Source of the DNA: Bacilli bacterium
GTDB taxonomy: Bacteria > Bacillota_I > Bacilli_A > RF39 > UBA660
Direction: 5' to 3'
Assembly (NCBI GenBank): GCA_017522615.1
Contig: JAFWYR010000023.1
Coordinates: forward strand, 996-64,995
DNA length: 64,000 nt
In this document: piece by piece, positions 1-58,587 of the stretch
How the letters are laid out: the number at the start of each line of letters is the position of its first letter
How positions within the stretch are numbered: the stretch's first letter is position 1
Translations under genes and position numbers: made by a program
The notes under the pieces: generated by a model
Told to the model about the DNA's origin: nothing
Seen by the model: the letters and a program-made list of their open reading frames with translations, nothing else
Databases searched by the model: none

Positions 1-332
1 AACTAACATTAAAGCAAAATATCATCAGTACGCTATCAATAATTATAGGTGGACTTGTATATCATATAGTTCTAGTTAAGCTAGGTGGAACAGTTGCATG
101 GTTAGATGCTTTTACTTTAAGTATAGGAATCGTTGCCGTAATTTTACAAATGTTCAGATATAAAGAACAGTATTTCTGGTGGATTATCACAGACGTAATA
201 GCAGTAGCAATGTACATAATACATTTTGACCCAGTATATCTAACCAAAAAAAGTATTTACTTAATAATGGCTATAATAGGCATTGTCAACTGGACAAAAC
301 TAAACAGAGAACGTAATAAAACAAATGAGTAA
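1..332 (+). CDS. pnuC: Nicotinamide riboside transporter PnuC, C-terminal portion (5' end outside window)
   Basis: Frame 3 is open from the window edge to TAA 330-332. The translation ...LGGTVAWLDAFTLSIGIVAVILQMFRYKEQYFWWIITDVIAVAMY... resembles the conserved C-terminal TM helices of PnuC. An NrtR-type regulator lies 1.3 kb downstream. Confidence 0.75.
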   Translation, partial: LTLKQNIISTLSIIIGGLVYHIVLVKLGGTVAWLDAFTLSIGIVAVILQMFRYKEQYFWWIITDVIAVAMYIIHFDPVYLTKKSIYLIMAIIGIVNWTKLNRERNKTNE

Positions 333-342
333 GAGGTTAAAT

Positions 343-693
343 ATGTTTAATGAAGAAGAAATAATTGAATTTATAAATCGTATTATAAATTCACCCAATA
401 TAGATGATAGCGAAATAAAAACAAATATCACAAAATTTTATGAATATATTGTATTAACAAATATGTGTGATGATGAAACATTAAAAAAAGTGTCAACGAT
501 AATAGAATGCTTAAATGAAATACTCGCATTAAAGAAAAAAATAGAATATATCGACGTAAATAGCCTAATTTCAAAATCTAATAATCCAAAAAATTATCAA
601 AAAATACCAAATAATAGACATTTTTGTCATTATGAAAGTGGCGGTTATTCATCTTCATGCGGGTCTTCAAGAACGTATAGTAGTCATTGTTAA
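343..693 (+). CDS. Hypothetical 116-aa protein, helical N-terminal region plus Cys/Ser/Gly-rich C-terminal tail (candidate substrate of adjacent radical SAM enzyme)
   Basis: ATG 343 is preceded by AAGAGG (331-336), so the track start at 325 is less likely. The tail reads ...NNRHFCHYESGGYSSSCGSSRTYSSHC-stop. The stop overlaps the next start (TAATG, 691-695). Confidence 0.55.
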   Translation: MFNEEEIIEFINRIINSPNIDDSEIKTNITKFYEYIVLTNMCDDETLKKVSTIIECLNEILALKKKIEYIDVNSLISKSNNPKNYQKIPNNRHFCHYESGGYSSSCGSSRTYSSHC

Positions 694-1598
694 TGGAACA
701 AATTAAATTATTTAATCAACAACTAACCGTAAAAAATGAACTATGTAGTGAAGATCCAAAAGACATAAAATTATCAAGTTCAAAACTTAGATTATATATT
801 AAATTAACAGATGATTGTAACGCTCACTGTGGTTTTTGTGCAAATCAAAATAGCCAAGATTATGGAAATATAGATATGGATAAATTAAAATATGTAATTA
901 CATATCTTCTATCAAAAGATAAATTACATGGCATATCCATAACAGGGGGAGAGCCATTAACACATCCAGATAAACTATTTCAAATATTTGATCTTATTTA
1001 TAAGCTAAATCCAAATATCGAAGTTCAATTATCCACAAATGGTTATAACTTACTAAAATTATTAGAATATGATAATATAAATAAACTCGAAAGCATTCAC
1101 ATTTCAAAACACCATTATAATGATGAAATAAATTATGAAATCTTTAAATCTAAAAACATAGCTTCATCTGATGATATTTCAAAGTTAAGTCAAAGTCTAG
1201 AAGATAAACAAATAATTAATATAAATACGATAATTATGAAAGAATATATTTCTAACTTAAAAGAGATAAAAAATATGCTAGAACATACAGCCCAACTTGG
1301 TGTATATAAAAATGGTTTTGTATCTTTAATTAGATGTAATGAATTTGCAAAACAAAAATATATTAATTTTAATGAAATATTTAATAATTTAGATAAATCA
1401 TTTTTCAAAGGACATCACTTTTATCATAGAAATTACTGCGAATGCTTATGTGGAATGTATTTAACCAAAAATAATAAATTAATTGAATTTTACGCTCGCA
1501 TGATAAATAATAATCCATGCCCATATACATCTCAGTTAGTATATACATCAGATAATAAAGTAACAGCAGGATTTAGTAAAAAAATAATATATAAATAA
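693..1598 (+). CDS. Radical SAM enzyme, compact (~300 aa), family unassigned
   Basis: CNAHCGFCANQ is the CxxxCxxC motif about 45 aa from the N-terminus, and GISITGGEPL is the SAM-binding glycine motif. A C-terminal Cys group (YCECLCG...NPCPY) suggests a possible auxiliary cluster. The start is coupled to the upstream ORF. Confidence 0.85.
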   Translation: MEQIKLFNQQLTVKNELCSEDPKDIKLSSSKLRLYIKLTDDCNAHCGFCANQNSQDYGNIDMDKLKYVITYLLSKDKLHGISITGGEPLTHPDKLFQIFDLIYKLNPNIEVQLSTNGYNLLKLLEYDNINKLESIHISKHHYNDEINYEIFKSKNIASSDDISKLSQSLEDKQIININTIIMKEYISNLKEIKNMLEHTAQLGVYKNGFVSLIRCNEFAKQKYINFNEIFNNLDKSFFKGHHFYHRNYCECLCGMYLTKNNKLIEFYARMINNNPCPYTSQLVYTSDNKVTAGFSKKIIYK

Positions 1599-41302: not shown

Positions 41303-41329
41303 TAATTAGAAATGGAAAGTAGGGATAAA

Positions 41330-42805
41330 ATGGAAAAATTAGATATTATAAAAAATATAACCGAACGAACAGGAGGAGATATATATTTAGGAGTAGTAGG
41401 GGCAGTTAGAAGTGGAAAATCGACATTCATTAAAAGATTTATAGAAAACTTAGTAGTACCAAATATTGAAGATGAGTATGAAAGAAAAAGAACATTAGAT
41501 GAAATACCACAGTCAGCTGGTGGTAAAACTATTATGACAACCGAACCAAAATTCGTTCCTAGTAATGCAACTAAAATTAAAATAGATGATTTTAGTGCAA
41601 ATGTTAGATTAGTAGATTGTGTAGGATACATCATAGATGGAGCTAAAGGATATGAAGACGAAAATGGTCCAAGGATGGTCAGAACACCTTGGTATGAAGA
41701 TGCAATACCATTTATAGAAGCAGCTGAAATAGGAACAGAGAAAGTTATAAAAGATCATTCATCTATTGGCATTATAATAACGACAGATGGTTCAATAGGT
41801 GAATTTGATAGAAATGCATACATTGAAGCCGAAAGTAGAATAGCCCAGGAACTGAGTGAAATAGGTAAACCATACATAATAATATTAAATTCATCTCATC
41901 CAATGTTACCAGAGACCGAAGATCTCGCGGAGAGATTAAAAGAAGAATATGGAGTTCCAGTCATGCCAATGAATATCGACAATATGAGTGAGCGAGACTC
42001 TTATAATATTTTAAGAGAAGCATTATATGAATTTCCAGTTAATTGTATAGATATTGAAATGGCTGATTGGGTAGCTTGCCTATCACCAAATAATTTTTTA
42101 AAAAAAGCATATATAGAAACCATAAGAGAAAGTATCGAACCTATTGACAAGTTAAGAGATATAGACATCATAACAAGTAAATTAGAAGAATGTGAATATA
42201 TAGAAAAGGCATATCTATCTGAAGTTGATACGTCTACAGGTAATGTAAGAGTAACTTTAAAGACAAAAAGTGAATTATATAATCAAGTATTAAAAGAAAT
42301 AATAGGAATAGATATTACCTCTAGATCACAATTATTAAGTTTAATGCAAGATTATAATGAAGCTAAGTTAGAATATGACCAAATAAAAGATGCTTTAAAA
42401 ATGGTAAAACAAACAGGATATGGTGTAGCTTCACCAAGACTACAGGATATGACATTAGATACACCAGAAGTAATAAAACAAGGTAGTAGATATGGTATAA
42501 AACTAAAAGCAGTAGCTCCATCAATTCATATGTTTAGAGTTGATGTAGAAAGTACTTTTGAACCGATAATTGGATCAGAACTTCAAAGTAAGGAATTAAT
42601 AAACTATATAATGAAAGATAAAGATGAAGGAATGGAAAACATTTGGAAAAGCGAAATATTTGGAAGAAGTTTAGATGTCATAGTTCAAGAAGGTATTCAA
42701 GCTAAATTATCACTCATGCCAGAGCAAGTTAGATATAAATTAAAACAAACACTTTCAAAACTCGTAAATAAAGGATCAAGTAATTTATTTGCCATTGTAA
42801 TATAG
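41330..42805 (+). CDS. spoIVA: Stage IV sporulation protein A (spore coat morphogenetic ATPase)
   Basis: MEKLDIIKNITERTGGDIYLGVVGAVRSGKSTFIKRF...DEIPQSAGGKTIMTTEPKFVP is near-collinear with B. subtilis SpoIVA, including the Walker A motif. hup follows, as in Bacillus. Confidence 0.95.
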   Translation: MEKLDIIKNITERTGGDIYLGVVGAVRSGKSTFIKRFIENLVVPNIEDEYERKRTLDEIPQSAGGKTIMTTEPKFVPSNATKIKIDDFSANVRLVDCVGYIIDGAKGYEDENGPRMVRTPWYEDAIPFIEAAEIGTEKVIKDHSSIGIIITTDGSIGEFDRNAYIEAESRIAQELSEIGKPYIIILNSSHPMLPETEDLAERLKEEYGVPVMPMNIDNMSERDSYNILREALYEFPVNCIDIEMADWVACLSPNNFLKKAYIETIRESIEPIDKLRDIDIITSKLEECEYIEKAYLSEVDTSTGNVRVTLKTKSELYNQVLKEIIGIDITSRSQLLSLMQDYNEAKLEYDQIKDALKMVKQTGYGVASPRLQDMTLDTPEVIKQGSRYGIKLKAVAPSIHMFRVDVESTFEPIIGSELQSKELINYIMKDKDEGMENIWKSEIFGRSLDVIVQEGIQAKLSLMPEQVRYKLKQTLSKLVNKGSSNLFAIVI

Positions 42806-50496: not shown

Positions 50497-53400
50497 ATGA
50501 GCGAAAATACAAAAAAAGAGTTAGATGAAGTTTTATCTCATTTTAATATGACTAACATAGAACAGCTAAGAGATAATCTAGAAGCCATTATTTGGATTAT
50601 AGAAAATGAAAAGTTAAGAGCTATGTCATATTTAAGTGACAATAATTTAGTAGATAATATTACACTTCCAAAAGAAATTGAAGCTCACATTGATGAAACC
50701 TTTGAAAGAATTTTTAATAATCCAGAAAAGCTTACAGAATATATTAACTCAGGTGATTTAGATATTATTAATATGTTTTATTCTAATGCCTGGACAGATG
50801 ACAACGTCGATGCATTTATAAACCTAAAAAAAACAAAAGATATAAGTGTTCCATCGGCATTATATAGTAAAGTAAGATATTTTAACTACTGTATTACACA
50901 TCAAAAAATTGATGAACTTCATAAATTCAGTGACTCTTCACTTTGGACTGATGAAAATATAGACATATATATTGAAATTATAAGCCATAATAATGTAAAA
51001 GAAATACCGTATGCGGTTAGAAATAACGAATACATGTTAAAAAAAATAATAGAAAGAAAAATGTACGAATGTCTTGAACTATTCTTTGGTGAAGTTTGGA
51101 GTGACAACAATATAAGAATATTGTGTGAAAACATTGACTCATATATAGACTATTTAATTTCAAGTAAAAATGGCTTTATATATTTTTTAAGGGGAAATAG
51201 TGATTTTCTAAAAAGATTATTAGAAAGAAACATTTATCATTTTTTAAATGATTTTTATTCGCGATGTTGGACCGATGAAAACAAAAAAATACTTATGAAT
51301 AATATCGATTCATATCTAGATTATTTAGCAAATAACAATGATATAATTCCTAATGAAATAGAATATTTATTAAAAGAAGATGCTTATGTATTAGAAATGG
51401 TCTTAAATAAAAAAATATATAGATTGTTAAGGCTTTTTGATAATAGTGAAATATGGAATGAAGAAATGACTGACATGCTAAAAAATCAAATGCTAGATTA
51501 TATTTTATATTTAAAAGAATCAAATATTTCATCTGAAAATAACATTTTTTTCTCAAATCGTGCATACATTCCATATCCTCTTCGCTATAGTAGTGAATTT
51601 CTTCAAGAAGTCTTAGAAAATGAGCTGTTTGAATATCTAACTATCTTCTATCCAGAAGCATGGAACACTGAAATACCAAAAGAAAAACTTGATTCATATG
51701 TAGATTTTTTAGGAAAATCAGACAAAAAAATAATAATACCATATGAATTATATTCAAATAAATATCTATTGAAAAAGATTTTAGAGAAAGGTCTGCATCA
51801 ATACATGCATGACTTTTATTCAACAGCTTGGACGAGTGACAACATAAGCACGTTAGCTCATAGTATAATTTCAAAAAAGCACTTTGATGAATTAATTACC
51901 AAAGATTTTGTGGGAAAAAATAATAATATGTTATTTGAAAACAGTCTATTTAGGCAAATAAGTTTTAAATATCACCCAGAGTATATTCTTCTATACAAAG
52001 GTGAAAGTAATGAGGTAATAGAAGATTTTATCAAACATATAGACTATAACATAGATGTTTTTGATAAATACATAACCCAAAATAAAGTGGAGGAAAGTCA
52101 AAAACTATTCAATTCTCAATCTTTTTGTAAATTTATCTTTTCGTATCATCCTGAATACATAAGACTATATCATGGCCACGAAGATATAACTTTTGAAAAA
52201 TTTTTAAACTGCATAAAATATAACTTAAAAATATTTGATAAATATTTTACTGAAGAAACTATATCTAGTAATCCAATGTATTTTAATTCAAAAGTCTTTC
52301 TTGAATTTGCCTTAAAACATCATCCAGAATATATAAAATATTGTACCAACAACAATGATATTGCATTGAAAGTCCTTCAAAATAATATAGAAGAAGGAAG
52401 CTACCAGTTTGAGGATGTTTTTGATTATGAAGAAATGCACGATTCATGGTTATCGAACTCTTGGTTTTTAAGTAATCTAGTAGATAAAGGTTTAATTGCT
52501 CCATCGATTTGTGAAAATAGAGAAATTTTGGATATTATTGAAAAGATTAGTCCTTCAGACGCTAGTGTATATAAATTGCTTCACCCAGATATATATAATC
52601 CACTATTTGATAAAATACCATTTACTTTTGACCAAATAATTAGATATGGAATGCTAGATGAAAATTTTCAAAGCATATTAGAAATAACAAAATCAAATAA
52701 GTTAGATAATGCATTAATAGTCTTCAACTACTTAAAACAAAATTATCCAGAAGAAAACGATGCATTTGGAATACCACTACTTCTAAAAACATCAAAAAAA
52801 TGTTTAAATAACGACTTTCAAAAATTACTATTAGAAATAACAAAAAGTAAAAAAACATTATCCAAAGAAGAAAACGAAAACCTATTATTCTTATTAAATA
52901 ATGATGTTGAAATAGAAAATTTAAATGTTGATAACTTAAAAGAAATAAAAAATATCGCTCACATACAAATAGAGGCAAGCATCGAAAGTATAATTGAAAG
53001 TGAACTTTCAGAACAAGAAAAGTCAAAATTATTAAGAGACAAATTATGCGAAGTATTAACTGGAAAAAATTATTCTGAATTTACGAATATGTTATCCCAT
53101 ACTGGAGACTATATAATGCTTGAAAGTCTATACAAAAGTACTCATTCATTAGAATTAGAACAAAAAATAATAGCGGCCATGACTAACTTAAGATTTATAT
53201 ATGATACTGTAATGAGAACATCGAGATATGATATGTTACTTAAAATATCTAAAATACTAATTGAAGATAACTTTGAAGATACTTTAGTTATTAAAAACTA
53301 TATGTCTAATTATGAAAAACATATTAGAACTATTCTTGAACTAGAAGCAAATGAAAAATTAACAAGTATTGAAGACGTCAAACAAGGAAAAATAAAAGGT

Positions 53401-54864
53401 TCTAAAATAAATGAAGACGGAACTATTGATTTAAGCCATAGTGAATATACCTTTTACGGACATGTTTTAATGCCTGGTCAAACTGTCAAAGACGTAATTG
53501 AAATAATAAAAACAGGCACTTCCCAAATATGTTTATCACCAATAAGTGATTTAGGCAAAAAGTTTTATCGAAATGACATAACTGTCTTATATACAAGAGT
53601 TCCTCAAAGTTCATATATTGGAAGTTCCAATGTAAACATGGGAAGTAATGGTTCAATTCCTTATGGCTCAGCTTCGGACAAAAATATAAGAGAACGTTTT
53701 TATCAACTAGGAATTAGAGATACTACTAACGCCTTACTCGAAGGACACGCCGAAACATTGTGCTGGAGAGATGGACTAATTCCAACGGCAATTATGCACA
53801 GGGATAATGGTAATCTAGGAGAAGAAAAAGCCTTCGCCAAAGAATTAGAAGCTGCACTTAACGAAGGAAAGCCAGAATCTGAATGGATAACTATACCAGT
53901 TATAATATCTCAAAAAGAAGGAACAAAAGGTTCTGTCCAAGAAGAAGATAGATATTATGAAATCGACAGTGATAAAACAAAAGGTATAGAAACTCCGTTT
54001 GATTACTTTAGTCAAATAGAGCCAGATGACGTATATGATATAATTGAAAAATCGCATATCTACTTAGGAGGAACTCATGAATTCTATACGTGCCGATTAA
54101 GAGGCAGAGAAGGATTTTACTTTTTAAAACCAACATTAACAATGGGTGGAAATTTAGGAGAACCTGGTAGACCATATATATCACATGCTGCAAGTAAACT
54201 ACAGGAAATAATAAATCCAGGCAATTCCCTAGATGTTAGAATAACTGAAGCTCCTGTAGGAATAAACGGTGAAATGATAAGATGTACAGCCTCTGAATAT
54301 TTAGAAGGAGGAACTGATTACAGCAGCTGGCAAAGTGAAGAAAACCCTAGAGAACTATCTCAAGAAGAAGTTTCAGCTTTTATGCACGAATTTATTGTTG
54401 ACCATTTAATGTATAGTTATGATACTAAAGGTGATAACTTTGTATCGTCAAATGGTAGAGTCTGCGGAATTGATAAAGAGCAAGCTTTAAAATTTGTCAT
54501 AGATGATGTTAGAAGAGGAGATATTACAAGTGGTTTTAATGAACATGAACATGACTATTCAAACAATAAACCACCAATATATATCAAAATATTTGAAATG
54601 TATGCAGATGGAAGACAATCTATTTCTGATGAAATATTTGAAGACTGCTATCAAAAATGTGAAATAATAGAGTCAATGAGTGATGAAGAGTATCTAGAGA
54701 TTTTTAGAGGATTTTTTGAAAATAGTATAGTATGTGAACAACCTGAAAATAAGAAGATTATAGAGGAAGCTTTATTACTTAGAAAGCGCACTTTAACGAA
54801 AGATTTTGAATCATTCATAGAAAGAAAAAAAGAAGAGGTGAAATCAAATGGAAAAACAAGATAA
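50497..54864 (+). CDS. Large (1455 aa) hypothetical cytoplasmic protein: N-terminal helical repeat arrays plus C-terminal protein-kinase-like region
   Basis: Uninterrupted ORF with the RBS CGGAGGA. It has seven (F/L)(F/Y)xxxxW(T/S)D(D/E)N-type repeats (Trp at aa 99, 150, 201, 258, 320, 389, 445) and three YHPEYI repeats (aa 493, 551, 609). Kinase-like motifs lie at 54064-54474. No signal peptide or TM segment. Confidence 0.7.
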   Translation: MSENTKKELDEVLSHFNMTNIEQLRDNLEAIIWIIENEKLRAMSYLSDNNLVDNITLPKEIEAHIDETFERIFNNPEKLTEYINSGDLDIINMFYSNAWTDDNVDAFINLKKTKDISVPSALYSKVRYFNYCITHQKIDELHKFSDSSLWTDENIDIYIEIISHNNVKEIPYAVRNNEYMLKKIIERKMYECLELFFGEVWSDNNIRILCENIDSYIDYLISSKNGFIYFLRGNSDFLKRLLERNIYHFLNDFYSRCWTDENKKILMNNIDSYLDYLANNNDIIPNEIEYLLKEDAYVLEMVLNKKIYRLLRLFDNSEIWNEEMTDMLKNQMLDYILYLKESNISSENNIFFSNRAYIPYPLRYSSEFLQEVLENELFEYLTIFYPEAWNTEIPKEKLDSYVDFLGKSDKKIIIPYELYSNKYLLKKILEKGLHQYMHDFYSTAWTSDNISTLAHSIISKKHFDELITKDFVGKNNNMLFENSLFRQISFKYHPEYILLYKGESNEVIEDFIKHIDYNIDVFDKYITQNKVEESQKLFNSQSFCKFIFSYHPEYIRLYHGHEDITFEKFLNCIKYNLKIFDKYFTEETISSNPMYFNSKVFLEFALKHHPEYIKYCTNNNDIALKVLQNNIEEGSYQFEDVFDYEEMHDSWLSNSWFLSNLVDKGLIAPSICENREILDIIEKISPSDASVYKLLHPDIYNPLFDKIPFTFDQIIRYGMLDENFQSILEITKSNKLDNALIVFNYLKQNYPEENDAFGIPLLLKTSKKCLNNDFQKLLLEITKSKKTLSKEENENLLFLLNNDVEIENLNVDNLKEIKNIAHIQIEASIESIIESELSEQEKSKLLRDKLCEVLTGKNYSEFTNMLSHTGDYIMLESLYKSTHSLELEQKIIAAMTNLRFIYDTVMRTSRYDMLLKISKILIEDNFEDTLVIKNYMSNYEKHIRTILELEANEKLTSIEDVKQGKIKGSKINEDGTIDLSHSEYTFYGHVLMPGQTVKDVIEIIKTGTSQICLSPISDLGKKFYRNDITVLYTRVPQSSYIGSSNVNMGSNGSIPYGSASDKNIRERFYQLGIRDTTNALLEGHAETLCWRDGLIPTAIMHRDNGNLGEEKAFAKELEAALNEGKPESEWITIPVIISQKEGTKGSVQEEDRYYEIDSDKTKGIETPFDYFSQIEPDDVYDIIEKSHIYLGGTHEFYTCRLRGREGFYFLKPTLTMGGNLGEPGRPYISHAASKLQEIINPGNSLDVRITEAPVGINGEMIRCTASEYLEGGTDYSSWQSEENPRELSQEEVSAFMHEFIVDHLMYSYDTKGDNFVSSNGRVCGIDKEQALKFVIDDVRRGDITSGFNEHEHDYSNNKPPIYIKIFEMYADGRQSISDEIFEDCYQKCEIIESMSDEEYLEIFRGFFENSIVCEQPENKKIIEEALLLRKRTLTKDFESFIERKKEEVKSNGKTR

Positions 54865-55294: not shown

Positions 55295-56566
55295 ATGAAT
55301 CAATGTAGAAAAGAAATAGATTTTTCCTCATTACCATTAATCATTCAAGATATGATTGAAGAAAATGTTCCTTCAGCAGCAATAATAGATGAAATGTTAG
55401 AAACAAAAGGCGAAATGAGTACCATAGGAGCTTTAATAATACTAGATGATATGAATATTAGAGGTGTTCAAATAAGTACACTTTATAAAATATGCCATCA
55501 AAACATCGATGAGTTTTATGAAAAAATAATAACAATAACTCCTGAAGATATAGATAAATTAAATTATGAAACATTCGCGATTTGTAAATATAAAGCAATA
55601 TTCGACGGAAATAAAGAAGAAAGAAAACAAAATCCTGATAAGTATATCTTTACAGATGAAGAACGTACTGATTTAAGAAACAAAAAAAGTAAAGATCATG
55701 TTCAAGAAATATTAAATGACAATCAATCATTAAAAAAAACTAACGATGATTTATACCCAAGTATATCCTCAAAAGAAGCAATTGAAATCATCAACAAAAA
55801 TGGATTTACATGTGGATATAAAAAAAACTATGAAGATATTAATGGAAGAAATATAATATACCGAGTATTCTATAATGATTTAGGAGATATATTATATACC
55901 CATTCATTAGAAGAACCTGATATTTTCTTATATGGACAATCCAAATTAAATGCCGTAAGAATAAATACTGTATCAGATTATGAAGATCTAGGTTGTAATG
56001 CCTACGTAAATGTGGACGGTGTTGTAGGATATAATATCGAATTAAGAGAAAAACCTTTTGAAAAATATCAAAAAATATTAGATAGAAAAGAACCAACTAT
56101 AAAAACTATTAAACACAATTATTATGATAGTAATTTGTATCCGATAATAGAATCTATTGAAGGTATAAACTATAAAACAGAAAATGAAGGTTACGATTCA
56201 TTAGTAATTTCCGAAATATATAGTTTATTAACATTCCCGGAAACATACTATGATTTAGATGACAGATTAAAACAGATATATAGTACTTTATTATCTTTTG
56301 CTGAAGAAAAAGCCTATGATGAGATAATATATCAGTTAAATAGTGATGAGGCAATCGATACTATAATTAATCTTCAAAAAGTATTAGGAATAAGCTTAGA
56401 TAAAGAAAAATTAATAGAAGCCAAAAATAGATTTTTAAGAATCAGTAAAAGTCATTTTAACATACCAAGACCTAGATTTTTAAGTGATTTTATTGTTAAG
56501 GATCCACAAGGTAAAAATTTAGAAGAGAGAATTGAAAAAGTTATGAAGCAAACTGTAGAAAATTAA
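55295..56566 (+). CDS. Hypothetical protein (423 aa)
   Basis: ORF with the strong RBS AAAGGAGGG. No signal peptide and no recognised motif. It is flanked by a bidirectional terminator. Confidence 0.55.
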   Translation: MNQCRKEIDFSSLPLIIQDMIEENVPSAAIIDEMLETKGEMSTIGALIILDDMNIRGVQISTLYKICHQNIDEFYEKIITITPEDIDKLNYETFAICKYKAIFDGNKEERKQNPDKYIFTDEERTDLRNKKSKDHVQEILNDNQSLKKTNDDLYPSISSKEAIEIINKNGFTCGYKKNYEDINGRNIIYRVFYNDLGDILYTHSLEEPDIFLYGQSKLNAVRINTVSDYEDLGCNAYVNVDGVVGYNIELREKPFEKYQKILDRKEPTIKTIKHNYYDSNLYPIIESIEGINYKTENEGYDSLVISEIYSLLTFPETYYDLDDRLKQIYSTLLSFAEEKAYDEIIYQLNSDEAIDTIINLQKVLGISLDKEKLIEAKNRFLRISKSHFNIPRPRFLSDFIVKDPQGKNLEERIEKVMKQTVEN

Positions 56567-56590
56567 AAACCACTGTTATGTGGTTTTTTT
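56565..56590. terminator. Bidirectional terminator between convergent genes
   Basis: AAAAACCAC-tgttat-GTGGTTTTT hairpin with A/T runs on both sides. Confidence 0.75.
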
Positions 56591-57634
56591 ATTTAAAACA
56601 TAAAATGCATAATATTCTTCCAAAGTTAAATCTTCATCAAATATTATTTTAGCCGCTTTTTCTCCAACATACCTATAATGCCATGATTCATATTTATATC
56701 CTGTAACATTCTCTTTATCTTTAGGAAATCTTATAATAAAACCGTATTTATAGGCGTTATCTTTAAGCCATTTAGCTGCATCTGTTCCATCGAAACTATC
56801 ATCTATAGTATTGATATCCGTACATAATCCTGTCTGATGTTCTGAATATCCAGCTCTTGCTGAATAAATATCAGCTTTTTCTTTTCCATCTCTTAAGACA
56901 TAACTATTATATAAATTTACTTGATAGGAATAACTTCTATATGCTGAAGCATTCTTTAAAGTAATTCCATCTAACATAGCTCCATCGACCATCTTCATAA
57001 AAGCTTCCGCTGCTTCTTTTCGCATTGAACTATTTCTTCCACTATTATATTTAGAAGTTAAAGTAACTAAATCATCCGGCTCATATCCATCTGGTAAATG
57101 ATTATATTTATTTACTAAAATCAAGTTATTATCACTTAGTTTAGCTTCATTAGTTTTAGAATAGAAATCTAAATCTGCATCTGCATTAACTATTGAAACT
57201 ATTTTTTTAGAACTGATTTTATTACTATTTCCATAATCTAAATATCTAGCCACATTAGAATTTATATAGTATTTTTCCTTAACTAAACTAGCAAGTAAGC
57301 TAGAAGCAGGATAATCCATCAAATCATAACCACTATTCACGATAGTAACAATATCAGAAATCTTAGAGTTACTATTTTTTTCATAATATTTTATATACTC
57401 TTTAAATTTATTTTTCTTATAATCTTTAGACGATATTAAATCTATTAAAGAATCATCATATTTCTTATAAAAGTAATTATAATCATCTTTTGAAACCATT
57501 TTAACTATTTTGTTAATTTCTTTTTCACTATATCCAGCCTTCGAAAAATTATTTTTTCTATTAAATATAATAAAACATAAAACAATTAAAATTACTATAA
57601 TAATTATTATTAACCATTTTTTAATCTTTTTCAT
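56576..57634 (-). CDS. Membrane-anchored D-alanyl-D-alanine carboxypeptidase (VanY/LdcB, peptidase M15B)
   Basis: N-terminal TM anchor. LVNKYNHLPDGYEPDDLV, SAYRSYSYQ, SEHQTGLCTDI and ESWHYRYVG are the Zn ligands and catalytic motifs of VanY-type enzymes. Confidence 0.8.
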   Translation of the reverse strand: MKKIKKWLIIIIIVILIVLCFIIFNRKNNFSKAGYSEKEINKIVKMVSKDDYNYFYKKYDDSLIDLISSKDYKKNKFKEYIKYYEKNSNSKISDIVTIVNSGYDLMDYPASSLLASLVKEKYYINSNVARYLDYGNSNKISSKKIVSIVNADADLDFYSKTNEAKLSDNNLILVNKYNHLPDGYEPDDLVTLTSKYNSGRNSSMRKEAAEAFMKMVDGAMLDGITLKNASAYRSYSYQVNLYNSYVLRDGKEKADIYSARAGYSEHQTGLCTDINTIDDSFDGTDAAKWLKDNAYKYGFIIRFPKDKENVTGYKYESWHYRYVGEKAAKIIFDEDLTLEEYYAFYVLNKKTT

Positions 57635-57642
57635 ATCAAAAC

Positions 57643-58587
57643 CTACTTATCTAAATAATATGCATAATACTCGTCAAAAGTTAAACCACTTTCATAAACT
57701 TTTTTAGCAAGTTCTTTTCCAAGAAAGCGGTAGTGCCATGCCTCATAAGAATATCCTGTAATGCCTTCCTTATCCTTAGGATATCTTAAAATAAATCCAT
57801 ATTTATAACTATTATCTTGAAGCCATTTAAAAGCTTCAGAATTTTCAAACGTTTTCATACCATAACCCGGCGAAAAAATATCTAGTGCAAGGCCGGTTTG
57901 ATGTTCCGAATAGTTAGGCCTAGCTGCATACTTGTCCGCATATTCCTCTCCGTTTTTATCTCGGTAATCATCGTATATTTCTTTTTGTTCATCGTAAGAC
58001 CTATATGAAGAATTAACTATTATAGTATGACCATCACTTTTAGCCGCTTTACTCATCTCTTTAAAAGCCTCATAAACATCTTTTCTAATACTATTGTTTG
58101 GATATGCATAAGCGCTATTCATTTGTTCTATATCATCTGGAGCATATTTATCTGGCAAACTATAATATTTATTTACTAAAATTCCAAATCCTAAATCCAT
58201 ATTTGTCTCACTAGTATGAGTATATGCATCATAAACAGTTTTTGTGTTCACCCTAGTAATAACATCATTATAATCGATTTTAGTACCTTTATATTCCTTA
58301 GTCATATATCTCTTATAATTATCGTAATTTTTCCAAATAAAATATTTCTGAGAAGTAAGTGTAATTAAATATCTGTCATACTTATTTTTTAAAGCATAAT
58401 CTATACTTTTTTGATCCAAATTTTTAATCTTTAATATCTCTTCTTCACTATAACCTATTTGAGTTAATTTATATTCTAAACTATTATAATGCTTATATAA
58501 AGCAATCCCAATAAAAATAATTATAAATCCCACTACTATAGAAGTTAAAATAATAATAGGACCTTTTTTAATTCTACGTTTCTTCAT
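57643..58587 (-). CDS. Membrane-anchored D-alanyl-D-alanine carboxypeptidase (VanY/LdcB family), second tandem copy
   Basis: LVNKYYSLPDKYAPDD, SSYRSYDEQ, SEHQTGLALDI and EAWHYRFLG motifs, with an N-terminal TM anchor. Confidence 0.8.
   Translation of the reverse strand: MKKRRIKKGPIIILTSIVVGFIIIFIGIALYKHYNSLEYKLTQIGYSEEEILKIKNLDQKSIDYALKNKYDRYLITLTSQKYFIWKNYDNYKRYMTKEYKGTKIDYNDVITRVNTKTVYDAYTHTSETNMDLGFGILVNKYYSLPDKYAPDDIEQMNSAYAYPNNSIRKDVYEAFKEMSKAAKSDGHTIIVNSSYRSYDEQKEIYDDYRDKNGEEYADKYAARPNYSEHQTGLALDIFSPGYGMKTFENSEAFKWLQDNSYKYGFILRYPKDKEGITGYSYEAWHYRFLGKELAKKVYESGLTFDEYYAYYLDK

Follow-up and report, generated by a model that had tools for sequence, protein, structure and literature searches.

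The closest described counterparts of the domain reported here appear to be the type II phosphatidylinositol 4-kinases (PI4Ks) PI4K2A and PI4K2B. The domain forms the C-terminal part of a giant protein encoded in a 64,000-nucleotide stretch of DNA (the whole of which is referred to below as the window; GenBank assembly GCA_017522615.1, contig JAFWYR010000023.1, positions 996 to 64,995 of the forward strand) from a Bacilli bacterium of the RF39 lineage. It belongs to a family of kinase-like domains whose profile is co-linear with the type II PI4Ks, the family pattern xxD-x-L-x-x-N-x-D-x-x-x-x-N corresponding to LDYIIRNTDRGNDN in PI4K2A, with the same spacing of the catalytic Asp and Asn. It differs in that the D-N-G-L of the PI4Ks is replaced by D-K-E-Q and in that the C-lobe of the family ends in a family-specific helical bundle; furthermore, the giant protein is soluble and the family is bacterial or phage-borne, with no pointer to a lipid substrate. 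The eukaryotic-like protein kinases (ePKs; PF00069, including PKA, DAPK1 and PknB) have the bilobal fold in common with the domain and their catalytic-loop Asp and Asn and their DFG Asp align with it exactly, but the domain possesses neither the His-Arg of the HRD motif nor an APE motif nor the αF–αI architecture.

On the phage side, effectors fused to the MuF head domain were reportedly described by Jamet et al. in 2017. Relatives of the present domain are likewise carried C-terminal to MuF and are encoded right after portal genes, whereas the giant protein differs in having no MuF domain and in being encoded among the genes for RecU, PBP1A and VanY. Polypeptides that join an ADP-ribosyltransferase (ART) to a second enzyme are a theme of the polyvalent proteins (PMC5512222; PMC9503650), which include a kinase clade that has lost its C-terminal subdomain and occurs in Verrucomicrobia, Chlamydia and Bacteroidetes (Iyer et al., 2017; PMC5512222); the present family differs in keeping a helical C-lobe and in being found in Bacillota. 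The Tox-Peptide Kinases of Firmicutes are described by Zhang et al. (2012; PMC3482391) as PVC-secreted, as related to the kinases of lantibiotic synthetases and as carrying the motifs DxH, YKP[KR], DxHxEN and DxE, which resemble the Y-[LF]-[FL]-K-P, D-x-[HK]-x-x-N and D-K-E of the present family in a comparison of motif lists only. Our literature searches turned up the general concepts of MuF-fused and polyvalent effectors and reports of new kinase-like (PKL) families, which structure-based screens still yield (2026 preprint 10.64898/2026.09.18.752743), but nothing that describes this family. The domain constitutes a new family within a known superfamily and not a new principle.

The evidence presented below makes it likely that residues ∼1180–1455 of the giant protein form a genuine PKL domain with the full core catalytic set, acting as an ATP-dependent phosphotransferase in a family of conflict effectors. 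As judged from the translation and the predicted model, the core set is complete (K1211, D1309, N1314 and D1326); we infer the catalytic activity, the class of substrate and the effector role.

Fold and active-site residues of the kinase-like domain

The giant protein is the product of a single unbroken reading frame (50497–54864, forward strand) of 1455 residues, with a molecular weight of 170.6 kDa and an acidic isoelectric point of 4.9. A hydropathy scan revealed no signal peptide and no transmembrane segment (the top 19-residue hydropathy being 0.71). Searches of Pfam, NCBIfam, PHROGs, PADLOC and the PDB sequences with the full-length protein and with residues 968–1455 gave nothing significant. 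No record of the identical protein was found, and the GTDB species representatives yielded nothing closely related to its full length. PHROGs returned weak matches only, and the sole Pfam match at E ≤ 1, to Phage_int_SAM_4 (13.6 bits), was dismissed as meaningless. As no curated library knows the protein, the five motifs from which an earlier note, made by eye from the sequence, had proposed a divergent and atypical kinase core could on their own have matched by chance. All five lie in the translated frame exactly where that note had placed them (Table 1). A chance resemblance of short and degenerate motifs in a large low-complexity protein, in which no curated hidden Markov model (HMM) reports the domain, now has practically nothing to recommend it: it is refuted by the invariance of the motif residues in distant homologues and by a confidently predicted kinase fold that carries the motifs on the right elements.

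The structure of residues 1163–1455 was predicted with AlphaFold2 (AF2) from an alignment of 72 sequences. The model (pLDDT 88.7, pTM 0.88), in which disorder is confined to the first 14 residues, displays the bilobal PKL fold, with a β-sheet N-lobe that includes an αC helix and a helical C-lobe. Its elements follow the kinase order of three N-terminal strands, an αC-like helix and two strands leading to the hinge. In the numbering of the model, the Gly-rich stretch forms the loop between strands 20–26 and 34–39, K1211 is located in strand 46–50 (β3) and helix 63–77 takes the place of αC, while ASEYLEGG lies at the end of strand 97–105 and in the subsequent loop, which is the hinge. D1309–N1314 come after a long helix (127–142) bearing E1298 and D1302, and D1326 is found just past the strand pair of a β-hairpin (153–162), beyond which the C-lobe is all-helical. 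Because this lobe runs to residue ∼1450 (nucleotide ∼54850), the domain extends beyond 54700; of the limits 54034–54700 proposed previously, the start was kept and the end proved to be short by ∼160 nucleotides.

Structure prediction followed by Foldseek was the check that had been suggested for the fold, and all of the top 50 matches in the PDB are kinase-fold proteins (probability 0.97–1.0), with no CotH, APH, SelO or SidJ structures among them. The best superposition is with PI4K IIβ (4wtv_A; query TM-score, TMq, of 0.49 and r.m.s.d. of 5.0 Å for 229 columns), followed by 9hhm (0.45) and Helicobacter pylori CtkA (0.43). The lowest E-values, 1.8e-4 to 1e-3, belong to ePKs (DAPK1, PKR and PknB), for which the global superposition is poor (TMq ∼0.35). 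In BFVD, a 1340-residue protein from a Mycobacterium phage that bears the name ‘ADP-ribosyltransferase’ comes top (TMq 0.65, E 1e-8), and the next are phage and archaeal-virus proteins annotated as catalytic domains of phosphatidylinositol 3-kinase (PI3K) or PI4K.

With the single sequence as query, a word-indexed search returned just two relatives, P0001 and P0002 (the latter consisting of an HD domain and the kinase-like domain), so that profiles were needed for the family search. A profile built from three sequences and scored exhaustively against 1.84 billion cluster representatives yielded 723 proteins (50%-identity clusters) at E ≤ 1e-3, of which 360 also passed 1e-10 and 77 passed 1e-30. 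A word-indexed search with the profile also gave a tight subfamily of ∼555-residue HD fusions; ∼77 further, more diverse members are unnamed or ‘hypothetical’ and have no Pfam domain across the kinase-like region.

Conservation was counted in an alignment of 116 representatives of 50%-identity clusters that cover the whole domain. K1211, D1302, D1309, D1326, K1327 and E1328 are present in all 116, E1298 in 115, N1314 in 113, G1191 in 109, and Q1329 and Q1236 in 107 each. Since the pairwise identity within the family is only ∼25%, the invariance of the catalytic residues points to selection on the active site. The Lys, the catalytic Asp and Asn and the DFG-like Asp of the motif reading are thus invariant or nearly so among distant homologues. 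The proposed D-x-K-x-x-N pattern was borne out in its Asp and Asn but not in its Lys, which is not a family invariant: position 1311 is His in 55, Lys in 34, Phe in 14 and Tyr in eight of the 116 sequences (His or Lys in 89). The catalytic-loop motif of the family is D-x-[HK]-x-x-N, which is closer to the D-R-H-x-x-N of PI3K/PI4K than D-x-K-x-x-N is. The reported lack of the HRD His-Arg and of APE also stands, with Y-S-Y-D in place of H-R-D and no APE.

The family alignment was compared with individual kinases using hhalign. Human PI4K2A (the query being identical to PDB entry 4hnd_A over 327 residues apart from CCPCC, in which the crystallized construct has Ser at all four Cys positions) gave a co-linear match of 125 columns (E 0.0019, probability 14%). 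It pairs GGTG with GSSGS, the [FL]KP containing K1211 with FKP (K152), the αC helices and the hinge Gln with Q261 and, in the catalytic region, D1302 with D301, D1309 with D308 and N1314 with N313. The match to PKA spans 30 columns only (E 0.059, probability 0.9%) and pairs D1309, N1314 and D1326 with D166, N171 and D184, respectively. Against PDB sequences, the family profile matched nothing but noise, of the coiled-coil and Fic kind, in the C-terminal helices, and these matches were discarded. The giant protein has no match to Pkinase, PI3_PI4_kinase, APH, HipA or CotH (in the case of Pkinase, none in Pfam at E ≤ 1), and its domain does not reach the gathering score of PF00454, all of which is consistent with the ‘atypical’ of the earlier note. 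At the level of the whole proteins, sub-threshold matches to PF00454 were observed in two of 72 relatives (best E 0.01) and in one of 44 (E 4.4e-5), and to HipA_C in one relative (E 1.7e-4). Predicted fold, conservation and residue mapping by profile together support the divergent catalytic core proposed at the outset. On the evidence of sequence and model, the domain belongs to the PKL superfamily, within which it lies outside every curated family and appears to be nearest to the PI3K/PI4K (type II) branch and to the phage PI3K/PI4K-like proteins rather than to classical Ser/Thr kinases.

PI4Ks give the best superposition (IIβ) and the best profile alignment (IIα), and one relative reaches PF00454, as would be expected of a true type II PI4K-like lipid kinase that modifies a phosphoinositide or another membrane lipid, possibly of an animal host. 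The structure nearest to the neighbouring ART-like domain, CteC (see below), is moreover an effector that acts on a eukaryotic target, ubiquitin. Such a function nevertheless appears quite improbable: the giant protein itself fails the PF00454 model, is without the palmitoylation insert (CCPCC) and the long insert ahead of the DFG-like Asp found in the type II PI4Ks, and has no membrane-binding or secretion feature. Many relatives appear to be packaged phage-head proteins, whose targets would necessarily be bacterial and, to our knowledge, phosphatidylinositol is lacking in most Firmicutes.

Relatives in phages and chromosomes

Relatives of ∼1100 residues consist of a MuF head domain, the kinase-like domain and a Rho_N/SAP-like motif, in that order (e.g. 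P0143 and P0157). Their genes directly follow portal genes of the Mu or P23-45 type, near those for terminase and the XkdF protease, in prophages of the Oscillospiraceae type, and confirmed relatives are present on at least 111 IMG/VR viral contigs. Proteins that are packaged in the head and enter with the phage DNA are a published concept (PMC5512222; PMC9503650), and by analogy the architecture places many members of the family among those that would be packaged and injected in this way. Other fusion partners are HD, ADPrib_exo_Tox, Phage_min_cap2, NUDIX and SMODS, and stand-alone kinase-like proteins of ∼260–320 residues also exist.

The HD-fusion subfamily (P0002-P0121, ∼555 residues each) combines an N-terminal HD phosphohydrolase domain (PF01966) with the kinase-like domain and has a mutual identity of >60%; contigs of up to 1.5 Mb carry it, which makes a chromosomal location in an abundant gut lineage probable. 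A divergent HD domain in the N-terminal regions of relatives of 500–690 residues was unsupported by iterated HMM searches. In chromosomal proteins of 2200–2350 residues, the kinase-like domain is located at the C-terminus, behind DUF4116 repeats, which form an α-solenoid (PMC8078820). Two of these, from gut metagenome-assembled genomes (MAGs), are L029:1671-8696 (2342 residues) and L018:1995-8696 (2234 residues), the former in a core chromosomal setting with genes for a low-molecular-weight phosphotyrosine phosphatase and UvrC downstream.

Contigs of GTDB species representatives contain 111 confirmed relatives, and the 80 of these that were listed are almost all from gut Bacillota (Oscillospiraceae, Lachnospiraceae, uncultured Bacilli, Erysipelotrichaceae and ‘Tenericutes’). 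With 723 or more clusters at 50% identity, the family is large, and it is concentrated in gut Bacillota and their phages. Its members are listed as hypothetical proteins because none of Pfam, NCBIfam, PHROGs and PADLOC recognizes the family.

Proposed reaction, biological role and alternatives

We propose that the domain would catalyse an ATP/Mg2+-dependent transfer of the γ-phosphate onto a hydroxyl group. In the predicted active site, K1211 would hold the α and β phosphates, N1314 and D1326 would hold the metals and D1309 would serve as the base, while the family-specific K1327-E1328-(Q1329) and E1298/D1302 would probably shape the substrate site. Phosphotransfer is the best explanation because the Lys/Asp/Asn/Asp set is intact at canonical positions on a kinase fold. 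The domain would form the second part of a two-enzyme C-terminal module, ART-like and then kinase-like, borne on ∼950 residues of helical repeats specific to the lineage, within what would be a soluble cytoplasmic 171-kDa protein of the core chromosome. Since relatives are fused to MuF domains by portal genes, or to HD, NUDIX or SMODS domains, the family may act as effectors in phage–host or inter-bacterial conflict. A bacterial protein or a nucleotide-derived small molecule is favoured as the target, as the ART, HD, NUDIX and SMODS partners all handle nucleotides or NAD. For the giant protein itself, a role as toxin, defence effector or regulator is conceivable.

Several observations weigh against this interpretation. 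TM-scores to solved kinases never exceed 0.49, and the profile links to known kinase families are weak, as seen from the low hhalign probabilities and the lack of Pfam matches. The αC Glu position, which is Glu in 71 and Lys in 21 of the 116 representatives, is occupied by His1230 in the giant protein, and the hinge Gln conserved in 96 of them is replaced by Ser1266. In the giant protein there is neither a MuF domain nor a secretion signal, and no phage or mobile-element genes are adjacent to its gene; its effector role is extrapolated from relatives. Lastly, the ART assignment of the preceding domain rests on a Foldseek E-value of ∼1e-3, a TM-score of ∼0.4 and a model from 17 sequences. Taken by themselves, His1230 and Ser1266 might indicate a catalytically dead pseudokinase that functions as a scaffold or binding module only. 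This is very hard to reconcile with the retention of the four core residues together with E1298, D1302, K1327 and E1328, which are near-invariant across a family of ∼25% identity, and we consider it highly improbable. Atypical PKL families do not all have the salt bridge between the αC Glu and the β3 Lys, and His1230 is therefore no bar to membership.

The kinase fold could instead support another chemistry, such as AMPylation (SelO-like) or ATP-dependent glutamylation (SidJ-like), perhaps on or with the adjacent ART-like domain or its product. A precedent is SidJ, a kinase-fold enzyme reported to glutamylate the ART SidE (PMC6858067). The invariant D-K-E-Q after the metal-binding Asp, as well as E1298/D1302, are foreign to the ePKs and to PI4K2A (AIDNGLAF), the αC Glu varies, and the domain is repeatedly paired with domains that handle NAD or nucleotides (ART-like, ADPrib_exo_Tox, NUDIX, HD and SMODS). 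However, the canonical Lys, Asp, Asn and Asp set is complete and occupies the positions usual for kinases, and SelO and SidJ are missing from the top 50 Foldseek matches, and we regard a reaction of this kind as unlikely.

A bolder proposal, to which we attach little probability, is that the ART-like and kinase-like domains form a new type of coupled two-enzyme effector module, in which the kinase acts on the product or cofactor of the ART or controls the ART by non-kinase chemistry, and that the family is a widespread head-packaged phage weapon against the nucleotide signals of bacterial immunity. If so, the kinase-like domain might phosphorylate an ADP-ribosylated target or a nucleotide derived from NAD or ADP-ribose, or might modify the ART as SidJ modifies SidE, and a weapon against immunity signals would fit the HD, NUDIX and SMODS fusions.

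The fixed pairing of the two domains in the clade of the window sequence suggests a two-step modification system. The preferred reading of the domain as a phosphotransferase provides a testable enzymatic hypothesis for the MuF-fused head proteins of phages, which number in the hundreds and are likely to be injected effectors, and the same hypothesis covers the ∼555-residue HD-fusion family and the giant chromosomal repeat proteins.

Remainder of the giant protein and gene neighbourhood

The features of the giant protein are summarized in Table 1.

Table 1. Features of the giant protein, with nucleotide positions in the window (all on the forward strand); fractions are counts among the 116 aligned representatives.
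Feature	Nucleotides	Residues	Strand	Basis
Seven helical-type repeats, ∼50–57 residues each, motif W-[TSN]-D/T-[ED]-N	50674–51921	∼60–475	+	Motif scan
Three ∼58-residue repeats, HPEYI motif at residues 493, 551 and 609	51922–52446	∼476–650	+	Motif scan
Helical linker, weakly common to P0129 and P0128	52447–53406	651–970	+	phmmer, E 2.7e-9 to P0129
Conserved middle domain, probably ART-like	53419–53916	∼975–1140	+	AF2 and Foldseek
Kinase-like (PKL) fold domain, predicted	54034–54861	∼1180–1455 (HMM envelope from 1163)	+	AF2; Foldseek against PDB and BFVD; 723 family clusters
LGGTHEFYTC	54064–54093	1190–1199	+	Motif scan
Predicted Gly-rich β1–β2 loop, LGGTHEF (family consensus GGTGxM)	54064–54084		+	G1191 109/116; loop in model; aligns to PI4K2A GSSGS
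Lys of FYFLKP, predicted β3 ATP-phosphate-binding Lys	54127–54129	K1211	+	Motif scan; 116/116; aligns to PI4K2A K152
αC-equivalent helix, His1230 at usual Glu position	54169–54213	1225–1239	+	R1225 and Q1236 conserved
Predicted hinge segment ASEYLEGG	54289–54312	1265–1272	+	Motif scan; model; family Gln column (Ser1266 here) aligns to PI4K2A Q261
E1298...D1302 on helix ahead of catalytic loop	54388–54402	1298–1302	+	115/116 and 116/116; D1302 equivalent to PI4K2A D301
Predicted catalytic loop D1309-T-K-G-D-N1314, in YSYDTKGDNFV	54421–54438	1309–1314	+	Motif scan; aligns to PI4K2A D308/N313 and PKA D166/N171
Asp of GIDKEQA, 12 residues past N1314	54472–54474	D1326	+	Motif scan
D1326-K-E-Q, predicted DFG-equivalent Asp followed by family-specific K-E-(Q)	54472–54483	1326–1329	+	D/K/E 116/116, Q 107/116; D1326 equivalent to PKA D184

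An acidic linker separates the kinase-like domain from the conserved middle domain, which lies directly upstream of it in 18 fetched relatives (P0001, P0122-P0130, P0132, P0140, P0159, P0178, P0216, P0225, P0230 and P0259), 17 of them aligned with the window sequence, and which is also found in the 2342-residue frame of the ‘Tenericutes’ gut MAG (L029). The middle domain has no match in Pfam and no match by sequence in the PDB. An AF2 model from 17 sequences (pLDDT 77.5) probably adopts an ART-like fold: its top three PDB matches are chains C, B and A of the mono-ADP-ribosyltransferase CteC with NAD+ (8ux2; E 1.3e-3, 1.9e-3 and 1.0e-2; probability 0.98–1.0), followed by Tpt1 and the ART toxin RhsP2, both at non-significant E-values. 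The conserved residues are Y987, H989, S1017, S1043-S1044, N1047, S1050-N1051, E1086-T1087 and R1091, of which H989, S1043/S1044 and E1086 recall the His...Ser-Ser...Glu of CteC-type enzymes in their order along the sequence. The domain differs from CteC in that TMq is 0.40–0.42 at 10% identity, with no sequence or profile similarity. Within the middle domain, conservation is highest in the stretch of residues 1043–1053 (nucleotides 53623–53655, GSSNVNMGSNGS), with the pattern SSNxNMGSN. A PDB profile match of this stretch to islet amyloid polypeptide (SSTNVGSNTY, E 0.18) is almost certainly a chance, low-complexity similarity.

The Trp residues of the seven N-terminal repeats are at positions 99, 150, 201, 258, 320, 389 and 445. 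No homologue of the N-terminal 950 residues, which include both series of repeats, was found by phmmer among the fetched family proteins or their neighbours. The equivalent region in the giant relatives carries DUF4116 repeats. The GC content steps up from ∼0.25 at 50497–53406, encoding the repeats and linker, to 0.32–0.35 at 53407–54861, encoding the two putative enzymatic domains. This step would reflect either a resistance of the conserved domains to AT drift or the arrival of the module as a cassette.

The setting is the core chromosome of a low-GC spore-forming member of the Bacillota, with the local gene order SpoIVA, CCA-adding enzyme, DnaD, Nth, PBP1A, RecU, the giant gene, a 423-residue open reading frame, two VanY, RuvX and YceG. 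Scans for promoters and terminators were uninformative, with counts equal to the shuffled expectation. The 423-residue frame, which is immediately downstream of the giant gene (55295–56566, forward strand), has no match in Pfam, NCBIfam, PHROGs or PADLOC and no homologue near other members of the family. It is followed by two tandem paralogues of VanY-type D-Ala-D-Ala carboxypeptidases on the reverse strand (56576–57634, 352 residues; 57643–58587, 314 residues). The window also holds the SpoIVA gene (41312–42805), the exact product of which has a match in a single Logan contig, from SRR12529303, and the presence of which marks the organism as an endospore former.

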